A DNA stretch of 64,000 bases from Eubacteriales bacterium (GTDB taxonomy: Bacteria; Bacillota; Clostridia; Oscillospirales; CAG-272). The position numbers were made by a program, and so were the translations under genes. The notes beneath the pieces are model-generated. The model was not told the DNA's origin. It saw only the letters and a list, made by a program, of their open reading frames with translations, and did not search any database. The stretch lies in NCBI GenBank assembly GCA_034178705.1, contig JAXFQY010000004.1, positions 5,987-69,986 on the forward strand. The letters are read 5' to 3'. Shown here piece by piece: positions 9,449-33,505 of the stretch (positions within the stretch are counted from its first letter, which is position 1; each line of letters starts with the position of its first letter).

Positions 9449-10388
9449 TTCCTTCCTCCGCAGAAAGTTGATCAAGCTCGGCCAGCATCCGCATGGCGGT
9501 TTCCCGATCCGGAAGCGTTGCTCCGCTCGCCTTAGCATGTCCACCGCCGCCGTAACGCACGGCTATCGGATTGATGTTATACCGGGAGGAACGCAGCTCA
9601 CAGAGCACGCCTCCTTTGTCTTCGGTAAAATTGCACCAGATATCCGTTCCCCGGATATCTGCCATGGTATTGACCATTCCGCGCGACAGCGAAAAGGCAT
9701 CTGTGCCGAGCGCCTCGACCTCTTCCTCTGTTGTGTAAAGATAAGCGACGCGATGTTCCGTAAAACGAATCTTCAGAATGAAGGAAGCGCGCATTTTCAT
9801 CCGCTCGTAATCGTCGGAATACAGTGCTGTATAAATTCTTCCCCGATCGATTCCCCGCTCACACAGCATGGCAGCAAGTCGGAAGGTTCTTGCAGAAACG
9901 GAATCAAAGCGGAATCTTCCGGAATCGGTAACCATTCCGGTATAAAGTGCTTCCGCAGCTTCCTGCGGGATCTCAAGCGAACACGCCTCCGCAAATGCGG
10001 CTATCAGTCCGCAGCAGCTCTCAAAGCCGGAATCGACAACTTCGGTATGACAGATCTGTTCAAGAAACAGATGGTGGTCGATGCGCACGGTTTCCGCAGC
10101 CAGCGTATAGCGGGCATCGCTGATAAGCGCCGGAGAGGAGGTATCCAGAACGAAAGCAAGCGCCCCGCTGTACTCTTCATCCGATATCTCGTCCATCTCA
10201 GAGCCGGAAAGAAAAGAAAAGCGCGGCGCAGAATCCCCGACGGCAAAAATACGCTTTCCGGGGAAATTCGCGCGAAGAATATGCTTTAATCCAATCTGGC
10301 TTCCGATTGCGTCACCATCCGGATTGCGATGCCGATGGATCACGATCGTATCATAAAGCCCGATCGCTTTCCTCACGCCGTCAAACAT
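9441..10388 (-). CDS. DHH/DHHA1 phosphoesterase (NrnA-like), copy 2
   Basis: Motifs NPDGDAIGS, IDHHLF and GGGGHAKASGA. GGAGGAAG RBS before ATG 10388. 8-nt overlap with copy 1. Confidence 0.85.
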   Translation of the reverse strand: MFDGVRKAIGLYDTIVIHRHRNPDGDAIGSQIGLKHILRANFPGKRIFAVGDSAPRFSFLSGSEMDEISDEEYSGALAFVLDTSSPALISDARYTLAAETVRIDHHLFLEQICHTEVVDSGFESCCGLIAAFAEACSLEIPQEAAEALYTGMVTDSGRFRFDSVSARTFRLAAMLCERGIDRGRIYTALYSDDYERMKMRASFILKIRFTEHRVAYLYTTEEEVEALGTDAFSLSRGMVNTMADIRGTDIWCNFTEDKGGVLCELRSSRYNINPIAVRYGGGGHAKASGATLPDRETAMRMLAELDQLSAEEGNG

Positions 10389-10509
10389 ACTTCCTCCGCA
10401 TATTTTTTATTTGTTACTATTATAACATGAGTTAACACAGATATCTACATACAATATCAACGAAAATCGATTTAGTTTTATTGCAGATATTCCAAGAATC
10501 CATCATTTT

Positions 10510-11709
10510 TCAGTCGAAATAGCCCTGATACCGGATTTTTGTATCGCGCCAAGGGAAAAAATACCGATACAGATCCAGAAAATAGTCATCGGTCATACTG
10601 GCAATATAATCCGTTACAATCCTGTCCGGCTCCTCGTTTCCGTAGGAAGAACCGCGCAGAGCCTGAAACCGCTCGACATAGGCAATATGGTGAGTAAAAA
10701 TCGGGGATTCCTTTCTCCCCTGCACAAGATCGTCAAACAGCCTCTCATACAGCTCCGCCATCATCGGACGCACCGTTTCCGCAAGGCGCCCCTCCTCCGT
10801 CACGCGGTTGTAAATCACCGCGTAATTCTCCTGTCTCGACTGCATCATGGCATCAAGGTAGCTGCGATCCAGCCGGATATAGGGCTTGCCGTAGCTGTTT
10901 TCGATCAGATTGACCGCCAGATTATTGACGATTTCGGTATTGGAGGCGCCGATCACATTATTTTGGAAAGGATCCTCCCGGATAAAACCGGCGCGCAAAG
11001 CGTCCTCCCGATCTTTGCCGAGATAGGCAATAATGTCGGAAATGCGGACGACAATCGCTTCCAGCGTTGTCGGTGTGATACGGGTTACATAGGTCCGGTC
11101 TTTCTCGCAGCAGGAAAGCACACGGTCAAATTCAGCAAAATCCCCGATCGGTTCCGGAACATACTTTTCACGGTCAAGAAGAAAATTATGACTGCACAGT
11201 CCCGTCAGGGTCTGAAGGGTAATATTATAAGGATAGATACGGTCAAGCACACGCGCCGACTGCGCCGCATGGCAGAAGTGTCTGCCGGTACGGGCAAAGG
11301 AAATTTCATCAAGAAAGCGCTCTCCCGCATGGGCAAAGGGCGTGTGTCCCATATCATGTCCGAGCGCAATAGCCTCGATCAGATCCGTGTTGAGATTCAA
11401 AGCAGCACCGATGGTCCGAGCGATGCGGGATACAAGCTGCACATGCAGCATTCTGTGCGAGACATCGTCGTTCTTGACAAAAGAAAAGACCTGCGTTTTG
11501 TCGGAATACCTGTTATAGAAGGGGCAATGCATAATCATTTCGGTATCGCGTGCATAGGCAGATCGCCATCCGGTATCAACAATTCCCATGCTTCCGTAGC
11601 GATAAACCGCAGCGCTGTCCGGACATGCCGTCCGCGGATACGTTCCGGTGGCACGTTCGGTTTTCATTCTTGCTGTCAGCTCTGCCGACAGGGTATCCAG
11701 CTTCATCAT
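10510..11709 (-). CDS. HD-domain dGTPase-like deoxynucleoside triphosphate triphosphohydrolase
   Basis: HD motif region RMLHVQLVSR..ALGHDMGHTPFAHAGERFLD is typical of the dGTPase/dNTPase family. Start set at ATG 11709 (MMKLD) because a TGtTATAAT extended -10 lies at 11732-11740 inside the longer ORF. Confidence 0.8.
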   Translation of the reverse strand: MMKLDTLSAELTARMKTERATGTYPRTACPDSAAVYRYGSMGIVDTGWRSAYARDTEMIMHCPFYNRYSDKTQVFSFVKNDDVSHRMLHVQLVSRIARTIGAALNLNTDLIEAIALGHDMGHTPFAHAGERFLDEISFARTGRHFCHAAQSARVLDRIYPYNITLQTLTGLCSHNFLLDREKYVPEPIGDFAEFDRVLSCCEKDRTYVTRITPTTLEAIVVRISDIIAYLGKDREDALRAGFIREDPFQNNVIGASNTEIVNNLAVNLIENSYGKPYIRLDRSYLDAMMQSRQENYAVIYNRVTEEGRLAETVRPMMAELYERLFDDLVQGRKESPIFTHHIAYVERFQALRGSSYGNEEPDRIVTDYIASMTDDYFLDLYRYFFPWRDTKIRYQGYFD

Positions 11710-11830
11710 GACCTTCTGTCCTCCGGACAACATTATAACACCTTCCGGCACTTTGAAAAGGGGCTTTTTGTTTTTTCTCCATTATTGACAAATTTCGATG
11801 CACCCGATTAGGAAAAACCGCCGAAACCGA

Positions 11831-11859
11831 TTGACATAGTAAAATCCCGGTGCTATAAT
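11831..11859 (+). promoter_or_regulatory. Sigma-70/SigA-type promoter for the antiporter gene
   Basis: TTGACA (11831-11836), exactly 17 nt, then TATAAT (11854-11859) preceded by TGc (extended -10). The start codon is 31 nt downstream. Confidence 0.65.
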
Positions 11860-11889
11860 GATGCGTATTTTAGAAACAGAGGCGATTTT

Positions 11890-13215
11890 ATGTCAACTAC
11901 ACAGATTCTTCTCAGTGTCTCCGTTTGCCTGTTTGTAGGGCTGATGATGACACGCATTCTGAAGCGGCTTCATCTTCCGGACGTTACCGCCTATCTGATC
12001 GGGGGCGTCCTGATTGGCTCCTTCTGCCTCGGACGCTTTGTTATAGGCGGATACAGCTTCGGTTTTAACAGCGAAATTGCTCCGGTTGAGGCCTTCACCC
12101 TGATCAGTGATGTGGCGCTCGGCTTCATTGCATTCGATATCGGAAATGAGTTCCGGCTTCAGGATCTGAAGCATACCGGCAAAAAAGCAACCATCATCGG
12201 CATCGTGCAAGCGCTTACCGCAACCCTTCTTGTCGATGCGGTGCTGATCGGTACGCATTATCTCCTTCTCTCCGTTACCGGAACCGATTATCTCCCTCTC
12301 CCTGCTGCTATTCTTCTCGGTGCGATTGCAGCGGCAACGGCACCGGCTGCAACCCTTATGGTCGTGCGTCAATACAAAGCGGAAGGGCCTCTTACCAACC
12401 TGCTCCTGCCGATTGTTGCCCTTGATGATGCCGTCGGACTGATCGTTTTTGCTGTCTCCTTCGGTGTTTCCAAGGCGCTTTACGGCAGCTCGCTCAGTGT
12501 GATCTCCGTCGTTGTAGAGCCGCTGCTTGAAATTCTGTTTTCCCTTCTTGTCGGCGGCCTGTTCGGAGCGGCACTCTCCTACATCGAACGGATTTTTCAT
12601 TCCAGAAGCAACCGTTTGACTCTGATGATCTGCTTTGTCTTTCTCACGATTGTTGTCTCCAAGCTCAGTTTTACCATCGGCGCCGTTACCCTGCGCTTCT
12701 CTTCTCTTCTCACTTGCATGATGCTCGGCACCGTTTTTTGCAATCTCTGCAAAACCTCGGAGGAGATGATGGAGCGCGTGGAGCGCTGGACAAAGCCGCT
12801 TTTTCTGCTTTTCTTTGTTATCAGCGGCGCAAGCCTTGATCTCAGCGTCTTTACACAGCCGATTTTTGTGTTGATCGGCGTGATCTATATCCTTTCCCGC
12901 TCCCTCGGAAAATATTTCGGCTCCATGGGCAGTGCCAAAGCAACCGGCTGTGAAGAGAGCATTGTCAAATATCTCGGAATTACCCTGTTGCCGCAGGCTG
13001 GCGTCGCGCTCGGCATGGTAAGCACGGTCTCGGCCGATCCGGTTTTCGGTCCTTCCCACATCGGAAACACCGTGCGATTCATCGTTCTTTTCGCCGTCCT
13101 CGTTTATGAAATTGTAGGACCGGTCATGACCAAAGATGCCCTCACAAAAGCAGGAGATATCAAGGCAAAGCCGGAAGGCACAACCGCCCGCCGCGAAAAT
13201 CCCCGTGTTTCTTGA
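11890..13215 (+). CDS. Cation:proton antiporter (Na+/H+ exchanger family, CPA-type)
   Basis: 441-aa polytopic ORF. The N-terminus LLSVSVCLFVGLMMTRILKRLHLPDVTAYLIGGVLIG is characteristic of the Na_H_exchanger family. Confidence 0.85.
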   Translation: MSTTQILLSVSVCLFVGLMMTRILKRLHLPDVTAYLIGGVLIGSFCLGRFVIGGYSFGFNSEIAPVEAFTLISDVALGFIAFDIGNEFRLQDLKHTGKKATIIGIVQALTATLLVDAVLIGTHYLLLSVTGTDYLPLPAAILLGAIAAATAPAATLMVVRQYKAEGPLTNLLLPIVALDDAVGLIVFAVSFGVSKALYGSSLSVISVVVEPLLEILFSLLVGGLFGAALSYIERIFHSRSNRLTLMICFVFLTIVVSKLSFTIGAVTLRFSSLLTCMMLGTVFCNLCKTSEEMMERVERWTKPLFLLFFVISGASLDLSVFTQPIFVLIGVIYILSRSLGKYFGSMGSAKATGCEESIVKYLGITLLPQAGVALGMVSTVSADPVFGPSHIGNTVRFIVLFAVLVYEIVGPVMTKDALTKAGDIKAKPEGTTARRENPRVS

Positions 13216-26251: not shown

Positions 26252-26300
26252 AAAAGCAAGTCAGCAGCACGGCGCAACGCCATGCTGCTGACTTGCTTTC
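26252..26300 (-). terminator. Terminator of the 26.4-33.2 kb surface operon
   Basis: 14-bp perfect stem GCAAGTCAGCAGCA / TGCTGCTGACTTGC (26256-26269 and 26283-26296). On the minus strand it is followed by TTTTATATATT. Confidence 0.7.
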
Positions 26301-26362: not shown

Positions 26363-27553
26363 TTATTCCTGTGTTTTCTTTTTTGCTTTTGCCGTAATCA
26401 TTACCACCATAGAAGCAGAAGCCAGCGCCGCAGCGACAATAACCCACATGGCGTCTCCGGTATCCGGGGTGCTTTCCCCAGCACCCGGAACCGTTGTTGC
26501 AGGTGCCGCAGTTGTTACAGGTGCTTCTGTTGTTACCGGCGCTGCCGTTGTCTCCGGCGCTTCGGTTGCAGTCTCTTCGACGCGATCAAAAATCGCCGCA
26601 ATCTCGGCAAAATTCGCGTTTGATTTCACTGCTGCTCCATAACGAAGCAGGGTTCCCTTAGTTGCCGTAAAGGTTTTTCCGGGCGTATAATGGCAGCACC
26701 ATTCAAATGCGTTCCCATCGTTACCGCCGAAGGTACCGCCGAGCCAGGTCAGCGTAAAACTTTCCATTTCAACATTGTTTGTACAGCCATAGAAGTTATC
26801 GATATGCGCGTTTTCTTCCACTGTTACATCCACTTTGCCGAGCACCACTCCGTCCGGGTAAGCGGCAGAACCGTGCAGAACCGAAACCTGTGCGTTTCCG
26901 CCAATTCGAATATGGGCAGTACCTGTGTAATTACCGGCAATGTTGCGGGAAAACGGAACAATATAAATGCTGCTGCCGGACAAAACCGTAATATTCACAT
27001 CTTTGTCCGAGTCAAGGGGAGGATCATCCTGCCCACTTTGATAGCCGCCGAGAAGACAGAATGCTTTCGCGATATTCTCGCCGGTCATGCTTGCGCCGGT
27101 CATCGTAACACCTTCTCCCACAGTAAGCGGATGATGCTGACCGATTACAAGCAAATTGGTTCCCAAAGCGACAAAGTCCATATTTTCAAATCGTGTATCG
27201 CCCCAACAGACAAAACGTGCCGGCTTAAACTGATAGCTTGCTCCTTCGGTACGATAATCCTTGCCGCCATATACCGAGGTAAAGGTAACGGAACCGGTAT
27301 ATTCCTCACACCAGTTGAAGGTCATCTGCTGCGTGAAAACCCCGCAGATAACGATTGTACAATTCTTTGTCAAGTCAAGATTTTCATAAGCGGTAAAAAG
27401 ATCATTTGTTGCTTTGTCAGGCGAGGAACCGTCTCCGGTTCCGGAATCCGAAAGAAAAACAACATTGTCCGCCGCTGAGACAGAGAAGGCAGGAACACAA
27501 AGGAGAAGCGCGAGAAAAACAGCAAGAGAGAGCCTGAATCGCTTTTTCATCAT
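26363..27553 (-). CDS. Secreted, C-terminally anchored surface protein of unknown function
   Basis: Start MMKKRFRLSLAVFLALLLCVPAFSVSA (signal peptide), a Cys/Gly/Thr-rich globular region, a T/P/A-rich linker (ATEAPETTAAPVTTEAPVTTAAPATT), then PDTGD + hydrophobic helix + KAKKK tail. Confidence 0.8.
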   Translation of the reverse strand: MMKKRFRLSLAVFLALLLCVPAFSVSAADNVVFLSDSGTGDGSSPDKATNDLFTAYENLDLTKNCTIVICGVFTQQMTFNWCEEYTGSVTFTSVYGGKDYRTEGASYQFKPARFVCWGDTRFENMDFVALGTNLLVIGQHHPLTVGEGVTMTGASMTGENIAKAFCLLGGYQSGQDDPPLDSDKDVNITVLSGSSIYIVPFSRNIAGNYTGTAHIRIGGNAQVSVLHGSAAYPDGVVLGKVDVTVEENAHIDNFYGCTNNVEMESFTLTWLGGTFGGNDGNAFEWCCHYTPGKTFTATKGTLLRYGAAVKSNANFAEIAAIFDRVEETATEAPETTAAPVTTEAPVTTAAPATTVPGAGESTPDTGDAMWVIVAAALASASMVVMITAKAKKKTQE

Positions 27554-27621: not shown

Positions 27622-29784
27622 TCAATACCGATCCTTCACTGTCAGATATTCCGCTTTTTTGATCAGTACATTTCCCTTTCCCGTACCGATCTTCAAAGTA
27701 TGGGTACCGGATTTCAGGAGAAGGCGCACGGAAATGCTGTCTGTCGCTGTATAGATCTTCCCCTGTGCCGCTGTTGCGGAAAACCCGATTCCCCCGTATT
27801 TGCGCCCGTCCACCACCAATTCTTCGGCAAGAATGCTGGACGGATTTTCATAGGTAATCCGCAGGAGTTGTTCTGTATTCTCCCGTCCATCCGGAATGTC
27901 CAAAGCCACAAGCTGTCTTCCGGATGCATCGAGCTCTCCGAGACTTCCGCCTGCAATCAGCGTCTCTTCTACGCGTACAAGGAGAAGTTCATCAATTCTG
28001 CCGGAGCAAGCCGCGCTTTTTGAGGCATCTCCGTCAACTCTCTCCACGCGGAAACCAAGCTCAGCCGTTTCGGCCTCCGCACGGAAAATCAACTCCCGAC
28101 GCACGGTATTCTGCGCTTCATATTTCGTTGGAGCGGTCACAGAGTTAGCACTGACGGCAACCGTTTTCCCGCCGCTCCGAACATAAAGATAGCCGTTCAC
28201 ACCGTCAGCGGTACAGAGGAACGCCGAGAAACGGTAGCTCGCCCCCACAGTCAGTCCTTTTATCGTGGTGCAAAGCTCTGCAGTTCCGTATAATTCCGCA
28301 GCATACTCGCCGGTTGTCGCCAGATTTCCGACCTTCACGGTTCCCGTGTTTACCGTGTAACCGGTCAGGTCTCCGGTCTCAAACCCGTTGTTTTCCGGAG
28401 GTATTGCATCATACCGCAAAAGCGTTTCTTTGGGAATATAGTAAATGCCGTCACAGATGTATCCGCCGTTCTCGACCAGAACAGATTCAAAATTCGTGCG
28501 GTACTTTTCTATGATAGCCGAGATCTTCATCCTTTCCGGAAGCTTCATTGCGCACATCCAGTAGCCGGTCTTATCCCCCAGCGGACGATTCACAAATACC
28601 CCGTTCCCATCCTGCCAGACATATTGATTCACCGTCTCCGGGTTCTTCTCCATTCCGCCGATAATCGCAACTACGGAAAGTGCAATTCCCACGGTACTCT
28701 CACAATCATACCCTGCAAGGGAGCCGATCCGGCAGGTCTCGGTATAGTCACCTTCTCCGTAGAGCAGATCGAGCAATACGAATCCCGCATTGATTGTTGA
28801 GTCGGTCATTTTGGTCTGTCCCGCCAGATAGTGCCGGCGCTCCAGTTCCGAGTACGCGGCGCGCCAGTTATCCGGATAGGTCCGGTACAGCTCGAAGACT
28901 TCATCAACAACTGTAAGCTGATAGGCACCTGTAGGAAACACCTTTTCCGCTTCCCGGATCAATGTGGGAATATCCTTTTCAAAATAGGCAAGTGACATCA
29001 TGACCGCAAACATCTGCGCCCACCCCACATTGTCCCGATCCCCGGTGACCGAGGCGCACATACCGGAAAGACGAAAGGCGGTCTCCGGCATCCCCGCGGC
29101 ATCCATACCGAGCGTGTCTGCTCCAAGATAGGGCTCTGTACAATAGCTGTACATATTTTCAAACTCTGCGTTTCCGGAAAACTGCGGCAGATATCCGTTG
29201 CGATTGATCAAGCCATATGCCCCGACCGTACGCTGACCGCCTCCCATATCGTAAACATCATACTTTTTCCAGCCCTCGCTCACCGATCGGGAGCATAATG
29301 TTCCGTATATTTTGTACATATCCGCCAGAATGTACTGATTGACCACATCAATTCCGAAGTCATCATCATTCCAGACCTCCCACAGTGTGCCATCCGCATT
29401 TTTCAGCAGTTTGACCGTGTGAGTCTTATGTTCGTTTTTCTTTGCATACGGTCCCTGACACATCGCAAACCAGCTGTCCGGCATCGCTACTCTTCCGCGT
29501 CCGCCCGGAAGTGTCACGAATTCATAGCCGGAAAGGGTTCCGACCAGCTGTGCAAGAAAACCAGCCGTTGTTTTATCCACATATTCGGCTACGGAGAGCA
29601 GCCGATATTCCTCTGCCGGAAGCAGGAGTTCTTTTCCGTTTTCATCTCGTATTAGATAAGTTGCTGCGGTTTCAGCGGATTTTTCGGTAGTTGTTGTATC
29701 TCCCAAAGCGGAACCGCACCCGCAAACAGAAGCAAGCAGCAGTGCAGAAAGCATCACAACCGCAAGGTTTCTTTTCATTGTCAT
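27622..29784 (-). CDS. Lipoprotein: ADP-ribosylglycohydrolase-fold (ARH-like) domain fused to CBM-like beta-sandwich domains
   Basis: Start MTMKRNLAVVMLSALLLASVCGCGS (lipobox); ATGA overlap with the upstream stop. ARH-like motifs DKTTAGFLAQLVGTLSGYEF, VWNDDDFGIDV and SLAGYDCESTVGIALSVVAIIGG. CBM4/9-like NNGFETGDLTGYTV... segment. The family call is by motif memory only. Confidence 0.6.
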   Translation of the reverse strand: MTMKRNLAVVMLSALLLASVCGCGSALGDTTTTEKSAETAATYLIRDENGKELLLPAEEYRLLSVAEYVDKTTAGFLAQLVGTLSGYEFVTLPGGRGRVAMPDSWFAMCQGPYAKKNEHKTHTVKLLKNADGTLWEVWNDDDFGIDVVNQYILADMYKIYGTLCSRSVSEGWKKYDVYDMGGGQRTVGAYGLINRNGYLPQFSGNAEFENMYSYCTEPYLGADTLGMDAAGMPETAFRLSGMCASVTGDRDNVGWAQMFAVMMSLAYFEKDIPTLIREAEKVFPTGAYQLTVVDEVFELYRTYPDNWRAAYSELERRHYLAGQTKMTDSTINAGFVLLDLLYGEGDYTETCRIGSLAGYDCESTVGIALSVVAIIGGMEKNPETVNQYVWQDGNGVFVNRPLGDKTGYWMCAMKLPERMKISAIIEKYRTNFESVLVENGGYICDGIYYIPKETLLRYDAIPPENNGFETGDLTGYTVNTGTVKVGNLATTGEYAAELYGTAELCTTIKGLTVGASYRFSAFLCTADGVNGYLYVRSGGKTVAVSANSVTAPTKYEAQNTVRRELIFRAEAETAELGFRVERVDGDASKSAACSGRIDELLLVRVEETLIAGGSLGELDASGRQLVALDIPDGRENTEQLLRITYENPSSILAEELVVDGRKYGGIGFSATAAQGKIYTATDSISVRLLLKSGTHTLKIGTGKGNVLIKKAEYLTVKDRY

Positions 29785-31265
29785 TGTTCCGGTTTGAACA
29801 GTGCGTCGTTCAGCTTTTGAATCGAACGTTCTGCACTCCGCTGATAGGAACGCCATGCTGAAGAGAAACTTGTGGAATACGCCTTTGAAAGATTTTCAAC
29901 CATATCCTTCATTCCACCGATGTTGAAAATATAACCGATGTCGAAAATACGGTTCTCCATCTCAATGGTGATCATATTATGACTTTCCTCATCCTGTATA
30001 TAGGTTCCGACAAGGGTCTTTGTGTAATAGGCGGGGGTCACCATCTGCCGGGAAATATAGGCAAGGTATTCCATGATGGCGGAAGTACGTTCGTCATTTT
30101 CGGTAGAATTCGGTACACAGACAAACGCGGCGTCCCATCCGCCGAACGGGGTATAGTAGCGGCTCTGTGCTTCGTCCAGTTTCGGAAGCGGCAAAATGCC
30201 GTAATCCAACTGTGTATCCCGGTAATACGGGAACATTACATGCTCTCCGAGTCGGAAAAGGCAATGCCCTTCAGCAAACATTCCTGTGGCGGAAAGTCCG
30301 CCCGTAGCAGTCTGTCCGTTATAGACATGCTCCCGGTCCTGGGTCAGCTCAATAAAGCCGACAATGGCATTTTCCGCTCTCTCCGTTCCGAGCGTAAGCT
30401 CTACCTTTCCGTCCTCTCCGATCTGCGCAAAACGCTCGCCGGACATATTCAGCGCCGCGACAACCGTACTGTGGATATAAACCATACCGTAAAGATCGTT
30501 GGAATCCATCTTATCGTCAGCGTTAAGATCTCTTGAAACCGCGGTAATATAGGATTTCATTTTGTCGAAGGTCCAGGTCCCGTTTTCCACATCCTGATAG
30601 GGCATATCCCATCCCTTTTCACGGAACATGGTTTTGTTGAAAACCATGTTGTACATGGCAACCGTCGTTACAAGGCTGATGTCTCCGGTCGTGAAATACA
30701 AGCGGTCATTCACGGTTATATCCCTGTTTATATTCTGATCCCACCATTCCCGATCCAGGTCGAGATACCCGTAAGTTCTCAGATCACGCAGATCACCGGA
30801 GGTAGTCAGCGTGCCGCAATCGTATGTGGAAATGATCCCCATATCATAGTTGGAATCCCCGGAGGTGTTTGCTTGGCGGATCAGGGAAACTCCGCTGTTG
30901 GTTGATTTATAATCCTCAATTCCGGTAATCACGATGTCAAGCCGTGCCATGGCAGCCATATTACGCCGGTAAAGTGCTTCATCAAGAACAGTCCCGCCCG
31001 CTGGCTCCGAGAAGTCCCGGATAATCGTGGGATCACTGTTCAGATTCGTCATCAGAACGACAAACTCATGCCCGTTGTAGGTCTCATCCGGAAGTCCCGG
31101 ATAGGCAAGCGGGTCTGCGGTAGTTTCGGAAACAGGATTCTCGCCCTGGGAAGAGGTGGTCGCTTCCGTGGTCACCGAGGGCTTTTCCGCGGCGCACGCA
31201 ACAAAAGCAGAACAGAGTAGGAAAAGCGCCAAAAGCAGGGAAAGGTGTCTTTTTGCGTTCTTCAT
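29781..31265 (-). CDS. Orphan family-1 solute-binding-protein-like lipoprotein
   Basis: MKNAKRHLSLLLALFLLCSAFVACAAE lipobox. About 490 aa, SBP-like (WWDQN.., GTWTFDKM..). No permease or ATPase genes adjacent. Confidence 0.8.
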   Translation of the reverse strand: MKNAKRHLSLLLALFLLCSAFVACAAEKPSVTTEATTSSQGENPVSETTADPLAYPGLPDETYNGHEFVVLMTNLNSDPTIIRDFSEPAGGTVLDEALYRRNMAAMARLDIVITGIEDYKSTNSGVSLIRQANTSGDSNYDMGIISTYDCGTLTTSGDLRDLRTYGYLDLDREWWDQNINRDITVNDRLYFTTGDISLVTTVAMYNMVFNKTMFREKGWDMPYQDVENGTWTFDKMKSYITAVSRDLNADDKMDSNDLYGMVYIHSTVVAALNMSGERFAQIGEDGKVELTLGTERAENAIVGFIELTQDREHVYNGQTATGGLSATGMFAEGHCLFRLGEHVMFPYYRDTQLDYGILPLPKLDEAQSRYYTPFGGWDAAFVCVPNSTENDERTSAIMEYLAYISRQMVTPAYYTKTLVGTYIQDEESHNMITIEMENRIFDIGYIFNIGGMKDMVENLSKAYSTSFSSAWRSYQRSAERSIQKLNDALFKPEQ

Positions 31266-31291: not shown

Positions 31292-33241
31292 TTAAATCTT
31301 TCGAATATCAAATCTCATCTCATCCGGTGCAAGGCAATAGTCACCCAGATCGACGGAAGTATCAAGGGGATTGTAGGTAACCGTAAGGAGACGCTTGCCG
31401 TCTGCGGAAAGATATTCCCCGCGGCGGACAAAACCCGGAAGCTCCAGATCGGATGTCGCGGTAAAAGTACCGTCCAGGAAAAACTCCCTGTACTCTATCA
31501 GCGTGTCTGTATATGCTTTGACAGCGGCAGCATATTTCGGCGCAGCATCAAGATGCGCACGGCAGACATAAAGCTCTGCATCGAGACGGAGACCGTAGAC
31601 AAGCGCACAACGCAGCCGGCGTGCAAAATCGCCCTCCTCGTCCCGAATTCCCCGTTCGGTTGTAATCACCTCCGGGAAGGTATAGCGGAACATCGCCGGG
31701 AAACTGTCTCCGCGAATCGAAAAATCGACATTCACGAGACCGTGCATGAACTGATTGTAGCTTGCGGCAACGTCGGTGACCACCTCGGCGGCCAGTACCT
31801 TTCCGTGCTTTTTGCAGTAGTCCTCCGCCTCGGCAAAGAACTGCCGGCGGTAATACCACTCTCTGTCGACCCGGTTGCCATGCTCATGTTGATCGTTGAA
31901 GCAGGGCTGATACGGGCATCCGCCGATACAGTCGGCAAAGGTACAATCGGCGCCCAGTTCGTCAAGCTGCCTGATCTGTGACAAAACCTGATTCCGCCAT
32001 TTCTCGGTTCCGAAACAGCAAAGGGGAAACTGCACGGCGCCGTAAGTCACACGATACTCTCCGTATCCCGGATAGACGAAGGCGGGGCGAACCTCATTTC
32101 CGTTAATATCGAGGATCGCAAGCTCTGCTCCGTTTTCCCGATAATAATCCGTTTTGGGATCCATGAAGTGACAGTTACATTCCAGAATCACCCGCCCGCC
32201 GAGGGCACGGACACGCTCAATACCCTCCTTCAGCTTCCGGAAGGCACCGGGATACGGTTCCTCATAAACCGGATAGCCGCGGTCCATTCCCTCCTTCCAC
32301 CAGGCAAAAAGGAACAGGGTATGTATCCCGTACTTGGCACCGATCCGATAAAGCTCAGGCAGATCGTCGGCCGTCACATAATCCTCCCCGTATTGAGAAC
32401 GCATAATGATCCGCTGCCAACCGGTCATTTCCCGAACCCAGGGTGCCTTTTCGGGAAGCCGGAAAAAGCTTCGGTCCGCCCATTCGCGGTATTTCTTCGC
32501 CCCGGCACGCCAGTCCCCTTCCAGCATTCCAATCACAACAGGAGGATACTCCACCGTCTCGCCCCGGCGCGCCATCGGGAAATGATCGACGCCTACCATC
32601 AGGTCGCTCGGGTTGCTGTGAATTCTTTGGCGAACGGTCAGAAAACAATGCCGCGCTTCTTCGTCGTAACGGGAAACATACAGAAAACGTCCTGCGCTCT
32701 GCACACCGAACCATCCCATTGACGCACGGGGATAGTGAAGATGCCAGAAGGTTTCGTGCTCATTGTGGAAATAATAGCGCGTCGTCAGACCGGAGAGCAC
32801 CTTCCAGGGATTTTTTGCACAGGTTCCGAGACCGTGCGGAAGATACAGTTTGTCCTTCTCCTTCTCTCCGCCGAGGGAAGTAAAATCGGCAAGAGGACAA
32901 AAGCACTCATTCACACGCAGCGCAGCGTGATTCTCAATGCGCGTTGTAAAGGAAAGCAAATCTCCCTCAGCGCGCACCGTAACTGTGAAACGGACCTGAA
33001 CAGAATCCCCGTAACCGGTTCGAAGCATCGGATAGTCAATGGTAAGAGAATCTCCGTTCTGCATTACCGTACCGCTCTGTTCGTGGGAAAAAACAGGAAT
33101 CTCTGTGCGCATTCCGTCATCCAGAATCAAGCGCCAAAAATCTGCTCCTTCATAGGGAATCACACCGTCAGCAAGAAAACAAGCCCTGCTGCCATCGGAA
33201 GACACCGAAAAATCCAAACCTTTGCTGTGTAGTGTCAGCAT
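31292..33241 (-). CDS. Cytoplasmic glycoside-hydrolase-like protein (putative TIM barrel; family not recognised with certainty)
   Basis: 649-aa ORF with a good RBS (TAGGAG) and no signal peptide. The central segment GIHTLFLFAWWKEGMDRGYP..GGRVILECNCHFMD looks like glycosidase barrel strands (inference). Confidence 0.7.
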   Translation of the reverse strand: MLTLHSKGLDFSVSSDGSRACFLADGVIPYEGADFWRLILDDGMRTEIPVFSHEQSGTVMQNGDSLTIDYPMLRTGYGDSVQVRFTVTVRAEGDLLSFTTRIENHAALRVNECFCPLADFTSLGGEKEKDKLYLPHGLGTCAKNPWKVLSGLTTRYYFHNEHETFWHLHYPRASMGWFGVQSAGRFLYVSRYDEEARHCFLTVRQRIHSNPSDLMVGVDHFPMARRGETVEYPPVVIGMLEGDWRAGAKKYREWADRSFFRLPEKAPWVREMTGWQRIIMRSQYGEDYVTADDLPELYRIGAKYGIHTLFLFAWWKEGMDRGYPVYEEPYPGAFRKLKEGIERVRALGGRVILECNCHFMDPKTDYYRENGAELAILDINGNEVRPAFVYPGYGEYRVTYGAVQFPLCCFGTEKWRNQVLSQIRQLDELGADCTFADCIGGCPYQPCFNDQHEHGNRVDREWYYRRQFFAEAEDYCKKHGKVLAAEVVTDVAASYNQFMHGLVNVDFSIRGDSFPAMFRYTFPEVITTERGIRDEEGDFARRLRCALVYGLRLDAELYVCRAHLDAAPKYAAAVKAYTDTLIEYREFFLDGTFTATSDLELPGFVRRGEYLSADGKRLLTVTYNPLDTSVDLGDYCLAPDEMRFDIRKI

Positions 33242-33505
33242 ACGAATCTCCTAAAACCATTTTCCTGTCTTTCAGTTTCTTTTCTTTTAATTTCATTATA
33301 GCAAAGCGAAATGGGAAATTTCCATACACCTCCACTGCTCTCTTTTTTAAAATATGAAACACTCCCGGCTTTGCGTCAGACAGCTTGCAACACAGATTCT
33401 GCGATTCCCCCCAAATTCATAAAGAGAGGAATCTTGCCTTTTCTGCAGAACTGTGTTACAATAAAAACAGATTTTGCCCAAACAACCGGAGAAAAGGAGA
33501 CTCTC

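Follow-up and report, generated by a model that had tools for sequence, protein, structure and literature searches.

Known ARH-fold systems and the locus under study

ADP-ribosylglycohydrolase (ARH)-fold enzymes are the textbook intracellular erasers of ADP-ribosylation. In their mechanism, two metal ions and a glutamate act on a ribose that turns its hydroxyls towards the metals, and alpha O- or N-glycosidic bonds are cut; ARH3 and DraG cleave alpha-ribosyl O- or N-glycosidic bonds, and the GNG(S/A)xMR motif of the ARH enzymes forms their nucleotide/diphosphate-binding loop. In the GH92, GH38, and GH47 alpha-mannosidases, one or more active-site divalent metals chelate vicinal hydroxyls of the released sugar. 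ARH genes have also been listed among the variable enzymes of the Bacteroidetes ribose-utilisation (rus) polysaccharide utilisation loci (PULs), and the release of ribose by the encoded ARH proteins has been hypothesised (Glowacki et al., bioRxiv 10.1101/574913). The present analysis concerns a 64,000-nucleotide stretch of a Eubacteriales bacterium genome (assembly GCA_034178705.1, contig JAXFQY010000004.1, positions 5,987 to 69,986; hereafter the window), and in particular a minus-strand gene encoding a lipoprotein, ARH-CBM, in which a divergent ARH domain is followed by beta-sandwiches that resemble carbohydrate-binding modules (CBMs).

The evidence described below somewhat favours the view that ARH-CBM is a surface-anchored, metal-dependent hydrolase of an extracellular glycan or glycoconjugate, encoded within a substrate-induced acquisition cassette. 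The gene and the parts of its product are located in the window as follows.

27622..29784, minus strand: ARH-CBM lipoprotein gene, 720 amino acids (open reading frame and translation)
29716..29784, minus strand: signal peptide with lipobox MTMKRNLAVVMLSALLLASVCGC, Cys23 being the likely lipidated residue (sequence)
28417..29664, minus strand: divergent ARH-fold domain, residues 41–456 (domain model and Foldseek)
27991..28407, minus strand: CBM4/9/22-like beta-sandwich, residues 460–598 (family profile, Foldseek, and Pfam domains of relatives)
27625..27990, minus strand: second C-terminal beta-sandwich, residues 599–720, weakly CBM35/6-like (DSSP of the model)

Read at its maximal length, the frame extends to 29856; the ATG at 29784 shares the sequence ATGA with the stop codon of the preceding gene, which encodes a solute-binding protein (SBP), and the protein begins with MTMKRNLAVVMLSALLLASVCGCGS. 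A chance reading frame or an annotation artefact is ruled out by 136 homologues with 37–52% identity and by a high-confidence full-length AlphaFold model (pLDDT 90.7, pTM 0.91, from a 63-sequence alignment). All of the sequence strings quoted in the original prediction were found in the protein: the lipobox LLASVCGC(23)GS, GTLSGYEF at residues 82–89, NDDD at 139–142, GYDCEST at 358–364, and, from the part described there as CBM4/9-like, NNGFETGDLTGY at residues 465–476.

The catalytic module adopts a divergent ARH fold

The PF03747 profile matches the ARH-CBM protein above its gathering score (38.6 bits versus 26.2; E 1.3e-9), and the match is limited to residues 178–383, which correspond to profile positions 89–286. 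In a genome-wide search the protein scores 40.9 bits on PF03747, as compared with 100–284 bits for the ordinary ARH proteins of 120 Clostridia genomes, so ARH-CBM is a very divergent member of the ARH family. A sequence search of the PDB with the single protein gave no match.

Because Foldseek results for the full-length model were dominated by beta-sandwich matches (GH101, Vip3/Cry), the search was rerun with the catalytic domain alone. The AlphaFold model of residues 38–458 (pLDDT 92.1, pTM 0.93) carries an additional N-terminal beta-hairpin and a C-terminal extension, and every one of its best 49 Foldseek matches in the PDB is an ARH-fold structure, with an identity of 9–15%. These matches include DraG (2woc; E 1.3e-5, TM 0.62 on target) and the Thermus thermophilus protein 2yzv (TM 0.71), together with ARH3, ARH1, Tri1, and MJ1187. 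The Pfam match above the gathering score and the exclusively ARH-type matches of the modelled domain confirm the ARH/DraG fold that had originally been proposed for the catalytic module.

Residues of the predicted metal centre

When the family was compared with 14 canonical Clostridia ARH proteins by hhalign and hmmsearch, the C-terminal half alone could be aligned, and this direct alignment places G-Y-D360-C-E362-S363-T onto the canonical G-G-D-x-D-T. The N-terminal motifs were therefore bridged through intermediate relatives, termed tier 2 and tier 3, which came from a search of 1.84 billion representative proteins with the domain profile; this search gave 1897 matches at E<=1e-3, 971 at E<=1e-10, and 91 at E<=1e-30. 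Some intermediates match PF03747 strongly along the full length, up to E 9e-64. In an alignment that combines the canonical sequences with those of tier 3, tier 2, and the family, the motifs correspond to each other as follows.

Motif 1: canonical GDALGxxxEF; tier 3 GVTYGxPTEF; tier 2 as in the family, GFLSGYEF, two residues shorter; E88 in ARH-CBM
Motif 2: canonical (T/S)-D-D-T; tier 3 x-D-D-x; tier 2 S-D-D-D; family x-D-D-D; D140–D142 in ARH-CBM
D-I-G motif: canonical P-x-D-I-G; tier 3 no clear equivalent; tier 2 D-W-G-G-G; family D-M-G-G-G; D179 in ARH-CBM
Nucleotide loop: canonical GNGxxMR; tier 3 N only; tier 2 GN; family GN, with MR lost; N210 in ARH-CBM
Motif 3: canonical GGDxDT; tier 3 GQDSDC; tier 2 GYDGDC; family GYDCES; D360, E362, and S363 in ARH-CBM

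In the window, the corresponding codons lie at these positions.

29521..29523, minus strand: E88, predicted equivalent of the catalytic/metal-binding Glu of GDALGxxxE(F) (multi-tier alignment)
29359..29367, minus strand: D140-D141-D142, predicted equivalent of (T/S)-D-D in TDDT (alignment)
29236..29250, minus strand: D179-M-G-G-G, aligned with the canonical D-I-G, near the start of the Pfam match at profile position 89 (alignment)
28696..28707, minus strand: D360-C-E362-S363, predicted equivalent of D-x-D-T in GGDTDT (hhalign, hmmsearch, and joint alignment)

These residues are strongly conserved. Position 88 is Glu in 100 of the 101 family members, D140, D141, and D142 are each Asp in 100–101 of them, and position 362 is acidic in 100, while position 360 is Asp in 74 and Gly in 27. 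The D179-MGGG sequence is invariant in the 101 family members and, like D141, in all 80 domain sequences that were taken from genome contigs for the analysis of clades; D179 may occupy the position of D97 in DraG. As E88, D140–D142, D179, and D360/E362/S363 map onto canonical residues, the metal site looks intact, and the ARH-CBM protein would, by alignment, keep an equivalent of every canonical metal ligand. The acidic metal-site residues whose modified motifs had been pointed out in the original prediction are thus present in the bridged alignment (E88, D140–D142, and D360-x-E362-S363). The canonical GNG(S/A)xMR loop is not retained: the ARH-CBM protein reads F-E-N-M-Y at this site, with N210 alone preserved and Glu at position 209, and the family consensus is E-Y-G-N-x-Y, from which the G..MR part is gone.

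Carbohydrate-binding-like modules and export

The C-terminal half of the protein had been described as CBM4/9-like, and this part of the prediction holds for the beta-sandwich fold and for homology through relatives, but not as a direct PF02018 match. No Pfam CBM family, CBM_4_9 included, matches the ARH-CBM protein even at E<=10, and the only NCBIfam signal noted is a weak match of NTTRR-F1 to residues 465–525. At the same position, many homologues have PF02018 (CBM_4_9) or PF21466 (GH101 domain 5). With the family profile, the porphyran-binding CBM 8xmz was retrieved at E 2.2e-5, and CBM22 and CBM35 structures weakly; the second sandwich gives weak profile matches to the CBM35 structures 2w87 and 2w3j (E about 0.45). 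Foldseek with the full-length model retrieves 8xmz (TM 0.78) and the CBM61 structure 2xom (0.70), as well as the sandwiches at the C-terminal end of GH101 enzymes. A CBM-like nature of the two C-terminal beta-sandwiches is thus supported at the level of the modelled fold and of the family.

Several observations agree with the extracellular lipoprotein that had been predicted. The residues S-V-C-G-C23 conform to a lipobox, and the family consensus has a conserved Cys at the same place. A crude test for signal peptides is positive for 88 of 115 family members, compared with 1 of 14 canonical ARH proteins, and a lipobox-like motif is found in 62 of these 88. In addition, homologues of ARH-CBM bear SLH, dockerin, and Cu_amine_oxidN1 modules.

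The four-gene cassette and its conservation

ARH-CBM is the third of four tightly packed minus-strand genes, which either overlap or lie only a short distance apart; a promoter-like site precedes the group, and a strong terminator follows it.

33295..33324, minus strand: promoter-like site TGGAAA-18-TATAAT with TG, preceding the DUF6259 gene (consensus scan only)
31292..33241, minus strand: DUF6259 protein, 649 amino acids, cytoplasmic, without a signal peptide, first gene of the operon (PF19773, E 8.2e-18)
29781..31265, minus strand: sugar-type ABC SBP lipoprotein, 494 amino acids (translation, SBP_bac_1 matches in the family)
26363..27553, minus strand: SURF, anchored surface protein, 396 amino acids from the ATG at 27553 (translation, good ribosome-binding site)
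26255..26297, minus strand: intrinsic-terminator-like hairpin with a 20-bp stem and a T-run after the SURF gene, probable end of the operon (consensus scan)

A scan of one genome per species yielded 76 related loci, all from metagenome-assembled genomes (MAGs) of uncultured gut bacteria labelled Clostridia, Eubacteriales, or Oscillospiraceae, from goat, cattle, roe deer, rabbit, and human (including Hadza) hosts. The co-directional cassette of DUF6259, SBP, one or more SURF genes, and one or more ARH genes is conserved among them, as revealed by tblastn of the window neighbours against the 76 loci. All four kinds of gene occur together in 15 loci, SURF adjoins ARH in 46 of the 76, and arrays comprise up to three ARH genes and up to six SURF genes. 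When the flanking open reading frames were clustered, a divergently transcribed AraC-family regulator was identified in 16 loci and two further AraC types in 14 and 6 loci; the window itself has no AraC regulator. An ABC exporter is also among the recurrent neighbours. A conserved tie to the neighbouring gene of the major facilitator superfamily was considered and rejected, as this gene is absent from the recurrent neighbours in the related loci and is transcribed divergently.

SURF represents an undescribed domain family of about 300 residues (for example in loci L056, L071, L029, and L048), with no relative in Pfam, NCBIfam, or the PDB at any threshold. Apart from D123, Y124, and R125, Gly, Thr, and Ser make up most of its invariant residues, and the fold may perhaps be a beta-helix. 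SURF homologues are anchored by SLH or Cu_amine_oxidN1 modules, as in the ARH family. At the C-terminus of the window SURF protein (26363-26490, minus strand), a T/P-rich linker leads to a PDTGD motif, after which come a hydrophobic helix and a basic tail; this non-LPXTG arrangement resembles a sorting signal. Among 42 long relatives, 25 join one or two SURF domains to ARH-CBM in a single chain; in P0311, SURF domains at residues 18–322 and 342–631 are followed by an SLH module (707–747), the ARH domain (853–1254), and a module resembling GH101 domain 5. The adjacency, co-expansion, and fusion of the two genes speak for a joint action of ARH-CBM and SURF as a single extracellular unit, with SURF as an obligate partner.

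In about 37 loci, the genes for the SBP lipoprotein and the ARH protein are syntenic, and 11 of 18 members of the SBP family match SBP_bac_1; the family profile has no significant match in the PDB. The SBP lipoprotein may use a transporter encoded elsewhere or may serve as a surface binding protein. Of the four genes, DUF6259 is conserved most strongly, with orthologues of 58–64% identity at the head of the cassette in 21 loci; its product is a putative intracellular glycosidase. A diverse DUF6259 alignment retains D243, W244, D320, D437, C447, H452, H454, E486, and D490 as invariant residues, which suggests that the protein is an enzyme, possibly a metal-binding one. No relative of DUF6259 was found among PDB sequences, even with a diverse profile of 20 sequences, and no mention of it in the literature searched. 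DUF6259 homologues of 55–56% identity also occur in PUL-like loci of Bacteroidales (L102 and L103, at 10001–12028), next to a hybrid two-component (HTCS) regulator and to DUF5107-TPR, GH43, SASA, BNR, and SusC proteins, and these loci have no ARH or SURF homologue.

In nine loci, a DUF5696 protein of 592 amino acids replaces DUF6259 (L007, 4502–6277; L008, 7102–8880; L045, 6217–7977; and six other loci). The DUF5696 profile matches the GH129 alpha-N-acetylgalactosaminidase 5wzn (E 1.6e-11) and ZgGH129 (5opq, 2.4e-7), so that DUF5696 is apparently a GH129-like family; the local similarity between DUF6259 and DUF5696 is not significant (E 0.049). Of the features of a Gram-positive PUL, the SBP belongs to the cassette, AraC regulators occur only in related loci, and the only recognisable glycoside hydrolase (GH) is the GH129-like partner found elsewhere. 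The conserved cassette fits the sugar-utilisation type, and its AraC, SBP, and GH129-like or DUF6259 partners agree with the glycan-directed activity suggested in the original prediction. The minus-strand location, the four-gene cassette, the SURF partner, and the clade without metal ligands described below had not been foreseen there. That prediction is otherwise supported, apart from the enzymatic activity, which remains conjectural; of the two refuting outcomes it had named, lack of a significant PF03747 or fold match and loss of the acidic metal-binding residues, neither was observed.

Clades, distribution, and the wider superfamily

The 80 domain sequences fall into several groups that differ in motif 3. 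The GYDCE(S/T)T clade, which contains the window ARH, comprises 27 sequences with a support of 100/100, and a small clade carries GYD(G/A)DS. The largest group carries GHGGD/E-S-T (GHGGDST). A degenerate GY--DAR clade (8 of 80 sequences, support 100/100; members L057, L059–L061, L063, L069, L073, and L076) forms a sister clade within the family. E207 and E217 join D141 and D179-MGGG as residues invariant in 80 of 80 sequences, the degenerate clade included, and the ARH genes of this clade still adjoin SURF genes. The degenerate clade may represent a natural pseudoenzyme, or it may hint at a second functional site.

The genome of the window (2.14 Mb, 97% complete) has one copy of ARH-CBM. Core-family copies are present in nine of nine genomes of the genus, at 1–7 per genome, and in only 1 of 16 other genera of the taxonomic family, and none was found in 17 other genomes sampled from the order. 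Elsewhere, several MAGs hold at least six copies spread over different well-supported clades. Such a patchy, multi-copy, and diversifying spread is the pattern of carbohydrate-active enzyme families. The window ARH is nearest to the copies in L007, L008, and L045 (65% identity in the domain), which pair with DUF5696, while the window DUF6259, SBP, and SURF are nearest to those of L043, L044, and L046, whose ARH belongs to the GHGGDST group. The window cassette is thus a mosaic, which suggests that the ARH gene has been replaced within it.

Tier-2 and tier-3 relatives join the ARH domain with bona fide CBM_4_9, CBM35, CBM6, CBM13/ricin, Laminin_G_3, PKD, and FIVAR domains, and also carry SLH repeats or a type IX secretion system (T9SS) sorting tail; some ARH relatives match Pfam GH101_dom-5. 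By the same crude test, signal-peptide-like N-termini are present in 71–80% of the tier-2 and tier-3 relatives, versus 1 of 14 canonical ARHs. Exported ARH+CBM proteins thus form a broad cross-phylum group that is uncharacterised as far as the literature was searched.

Proposed function and alternative explanations

In the proposed scheme, ARH-CBM would be a lipid-anchored surface enzyme whose divergent ARH domain harbours an acidic two-metal centre and whose CBM-like sandwiches hold it on a polymeric carbohydrate. Together with wall-anchored SURF, it would bind and cut a glycan or glycoconjugate outside the cell; the SBP lipoprotein would then bind the oligosaccharide set free and pass it to an ABC importer whose genes lie elsewhere, and the cytoplasmic DUF6259 protein, or the GH129-like DUF5696 protein in other lineages, would complete hydrolysis. 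Here we infer the catalytic activity, the type of glycosidic bond, and everything that concerns the substrate, and the originally suggested glycosidase acting on a furanosyl-type bond is purely conjectural. By analogy, the substrate may possibly contain a sugar whose cis-diol chelates the metals. It is also conceivable, though more doubtful, that the core family and its wider superfamily constitute a new and mechanistically distinct class of carbohydrate-active enzymes (CAZymes), in which a two-metal ARH site cleaves extracellular glycans, SURF is an obligate partner, and the products feed DUF6259 or DUF5696. Candidate targets of such a class would be, by analogy, a cis-diol sugar or a sugar–Ser/Thr linkage similar to the Ser-ADP-ribose bond cleaved by ARH3.

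A number of observations weigh against a metal-dependent surface hydrolase of glycans. The residue mapping is derived from alignment alone, and the N-terminal half is too divergent for a direct profile–profile alignment with canonical ARHs. The largest group of domain sequences, GHGGD/E-S-T, does not have the first Asp of motif 3, and in the degenerate clade E88 is replaced by Lys, D140 by Ala, and D142 by Ala, Thr, or Ser, with motif 3 truncated; since this clade is nevertheless conserved and linked to SURF, the two-metal centre may be dispensable for the role shared by the family. Beside the SBP gene, neither an ABC permease gene nor an ATPase gene lies in any locus examined, neither DUF6259 nor SURF could be related to a known fold or family, and ARH orthologues are sometimes solitary among housekeeping genes. 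The literature searched contains no description of any member of the ARH-CBM family, the rus-locus paper being the only relevant trace. Finally, two subunits of the chloroplast Orf2971/Ycf2-FtsHi complex (8xks_Q and 8xqw_G) are among the best fold matches, so the fold is also used non-catalytically.

Part of this evidence would suit an ARH module that is a non-catalytic binding or scaffold pseudoenzyme, which presents the CBMs together with SURF, for example as an adhesin or for substrate capture, and leaves cleavage to other proteins. One clade that has lost most metal ligands is still maintained next to SURF, ARH folds serve as structural subunits in other complexes, the family-wide invariants DMGGG, E207, E217, and NFE are not classical metal ligands, and the invariant residues of SURF are mostly Gly, Thr, and Ser. 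However, the Glu, the DDD triad, and the acidic and Ser/Thr residues of motif 3 are kept in 72 of 80 sequences, which would be unexpected without catalysis, and the cassette encodes no other extracellular hydrolase, so a pseudoenzyme is considered rather unlikely. Unlikely, too, is classical ARH chemistry performed outside the cell, in which ADP-ribose, NAD-derived compounds, poly(ADP-ribose), or ADP-ribosylated proteins from lysed cells or host surfaces would be processed for ribose or nucleotide scavenging, as proposed for the rus-locus ARH. Such chemistry would be compatible with the retained equivalents of the canonical metal-binding and catalytic residues, with the GN of the nucleotide loop that is kept in the family, with the strong PF03747 matches of distant exported relatives, and with the rus PULs in which ARH proteins have been hypothesised to release ribose. 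Yet only GN.Y is left of GNGxxMR, and the N-terminal half cannot for the most part be aligned with canonical ARHs. No ribokinase, ribose transporter, SusC/D, or nucleoside hydrolase was recognised among the recurrent neighbours of the 76 loci, of which only the large clusters were identified by Pfam, and CBM-type modules and tandem paralogues suit polymeric, diverse substrates better.

A third explanation, regarded as very unlikely, is that ARH-CBM and SURF remodel the envelope of their own cell, acting on a secondary cell-wall polymer, a teichoic-acid-like polymer, or an S-layer glycan, and do not take part in nutrient uptake. The anchoring of relatives through SLH and Cu_amine_oxidN1 wall-binding modules, and solitary copies among housekeeping and envelope genes such as those for Mur ligases and an amidase, are in line with this explanation, but AraC, SBP, and a cytoplasmic GH129-like or DUF6259 protein are the signature of substrate-induced uptake, the dockerin-bearing relatives point to nutrient capture of the cellulosome type, and the patchy multi-copy distribution is unlike that of a core envelope function. 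Extracellular hydrolysis of a glycan or glycoconjugate by ARH-CBM, with the SURF, SBP, and DUF6259 proteins as its partners, is therefore preferred here.

If the exported, CBM-bearing branch of the ARH family does cleave glycans, the carbohydrate-active enzymes would gain a new catalytic scaffold and probably a metal-dependent mechanism that is new as well, on a scale of 971 representative clusters by profile at E<=1e-10. Functions would be assigned together to SURF, DUF6259, and DUF5696, and an overlooked nutrient-acquisition pathway would be revealed in uncultured Clostridia that abound in the guts of ruminants, rabbits, and humans. A concrete system for experiments is provided by the conserved cassette together with the ARH–SURF fusions.

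Comparison with known systems

The ARH-CBM domain shares its all-alpha fold with DraG, ARH3/ADPRS, ARH1, Tri1, MJ1187, and the structures 2cwc and 2yzv (TM 0.55–0.71 on target), and equivalents of the Glu, (T/S)DD, D-I-G, and DxDT motifs appear, by alignment, to be common to all of them. In contrast to these enzymes, to which it is 9–15% identical, ARH-CBM has about 120 extra residues, a motif-1 loop that is two residues shorter, Thr-to-Asp and Asp-to-Glu replacements, and a remodelled GNGxxMR loop. Whereas the canonical role of ARH enzymes is cytoplasmic and concerns regulation or immunity, ARH-CBM is predicted to be an exported lipoprotein with CBM-like modules and is encoded in an operon of the sugar type.

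The rus PULs of Bacteroidetes resemble the present locus in that both contain exported ARH-family proteins in nutrient-acquisition loci of gut bacteria. The ARH-CBM locus, however, belongs to another phylum, does not contain SusC/D, and encodes a far more divergent ARH subfamily, the partners of which are SURF and DUF6259 or GH129-like proteins. With the GH101 and GH129 enzymes (EngBF/SpGH101, NagBb, and ZgGH129), the likeness lies in the accessory modules and the partner gene: the C-terminal sandwiches of ARH-CBM find their best full-length fold match in the C-terminal domains of GH101, and the DUF5696 alternative in the cassette is GH129-like, but the catalytic ARH module is not a TIM barrel. 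The metal/cis-diol principle that may operate in ARH-CBM would be similar to that of GH92, GH38, and GH47, although the folds are unrelated.

The proteins of the wider exported ARH+CBM superfamily (for example P0334, P0348, P0332, and P0380) have the same domain and carry the motifs GxLSGYEF, SDDD, DWGGG, and GYDGDC. These proteins score 200–380 bits on the family profile, compared with more than 500 bits for the core family, and their motif 3 is DxDC, whereas that of ARH-CBM is DCES.

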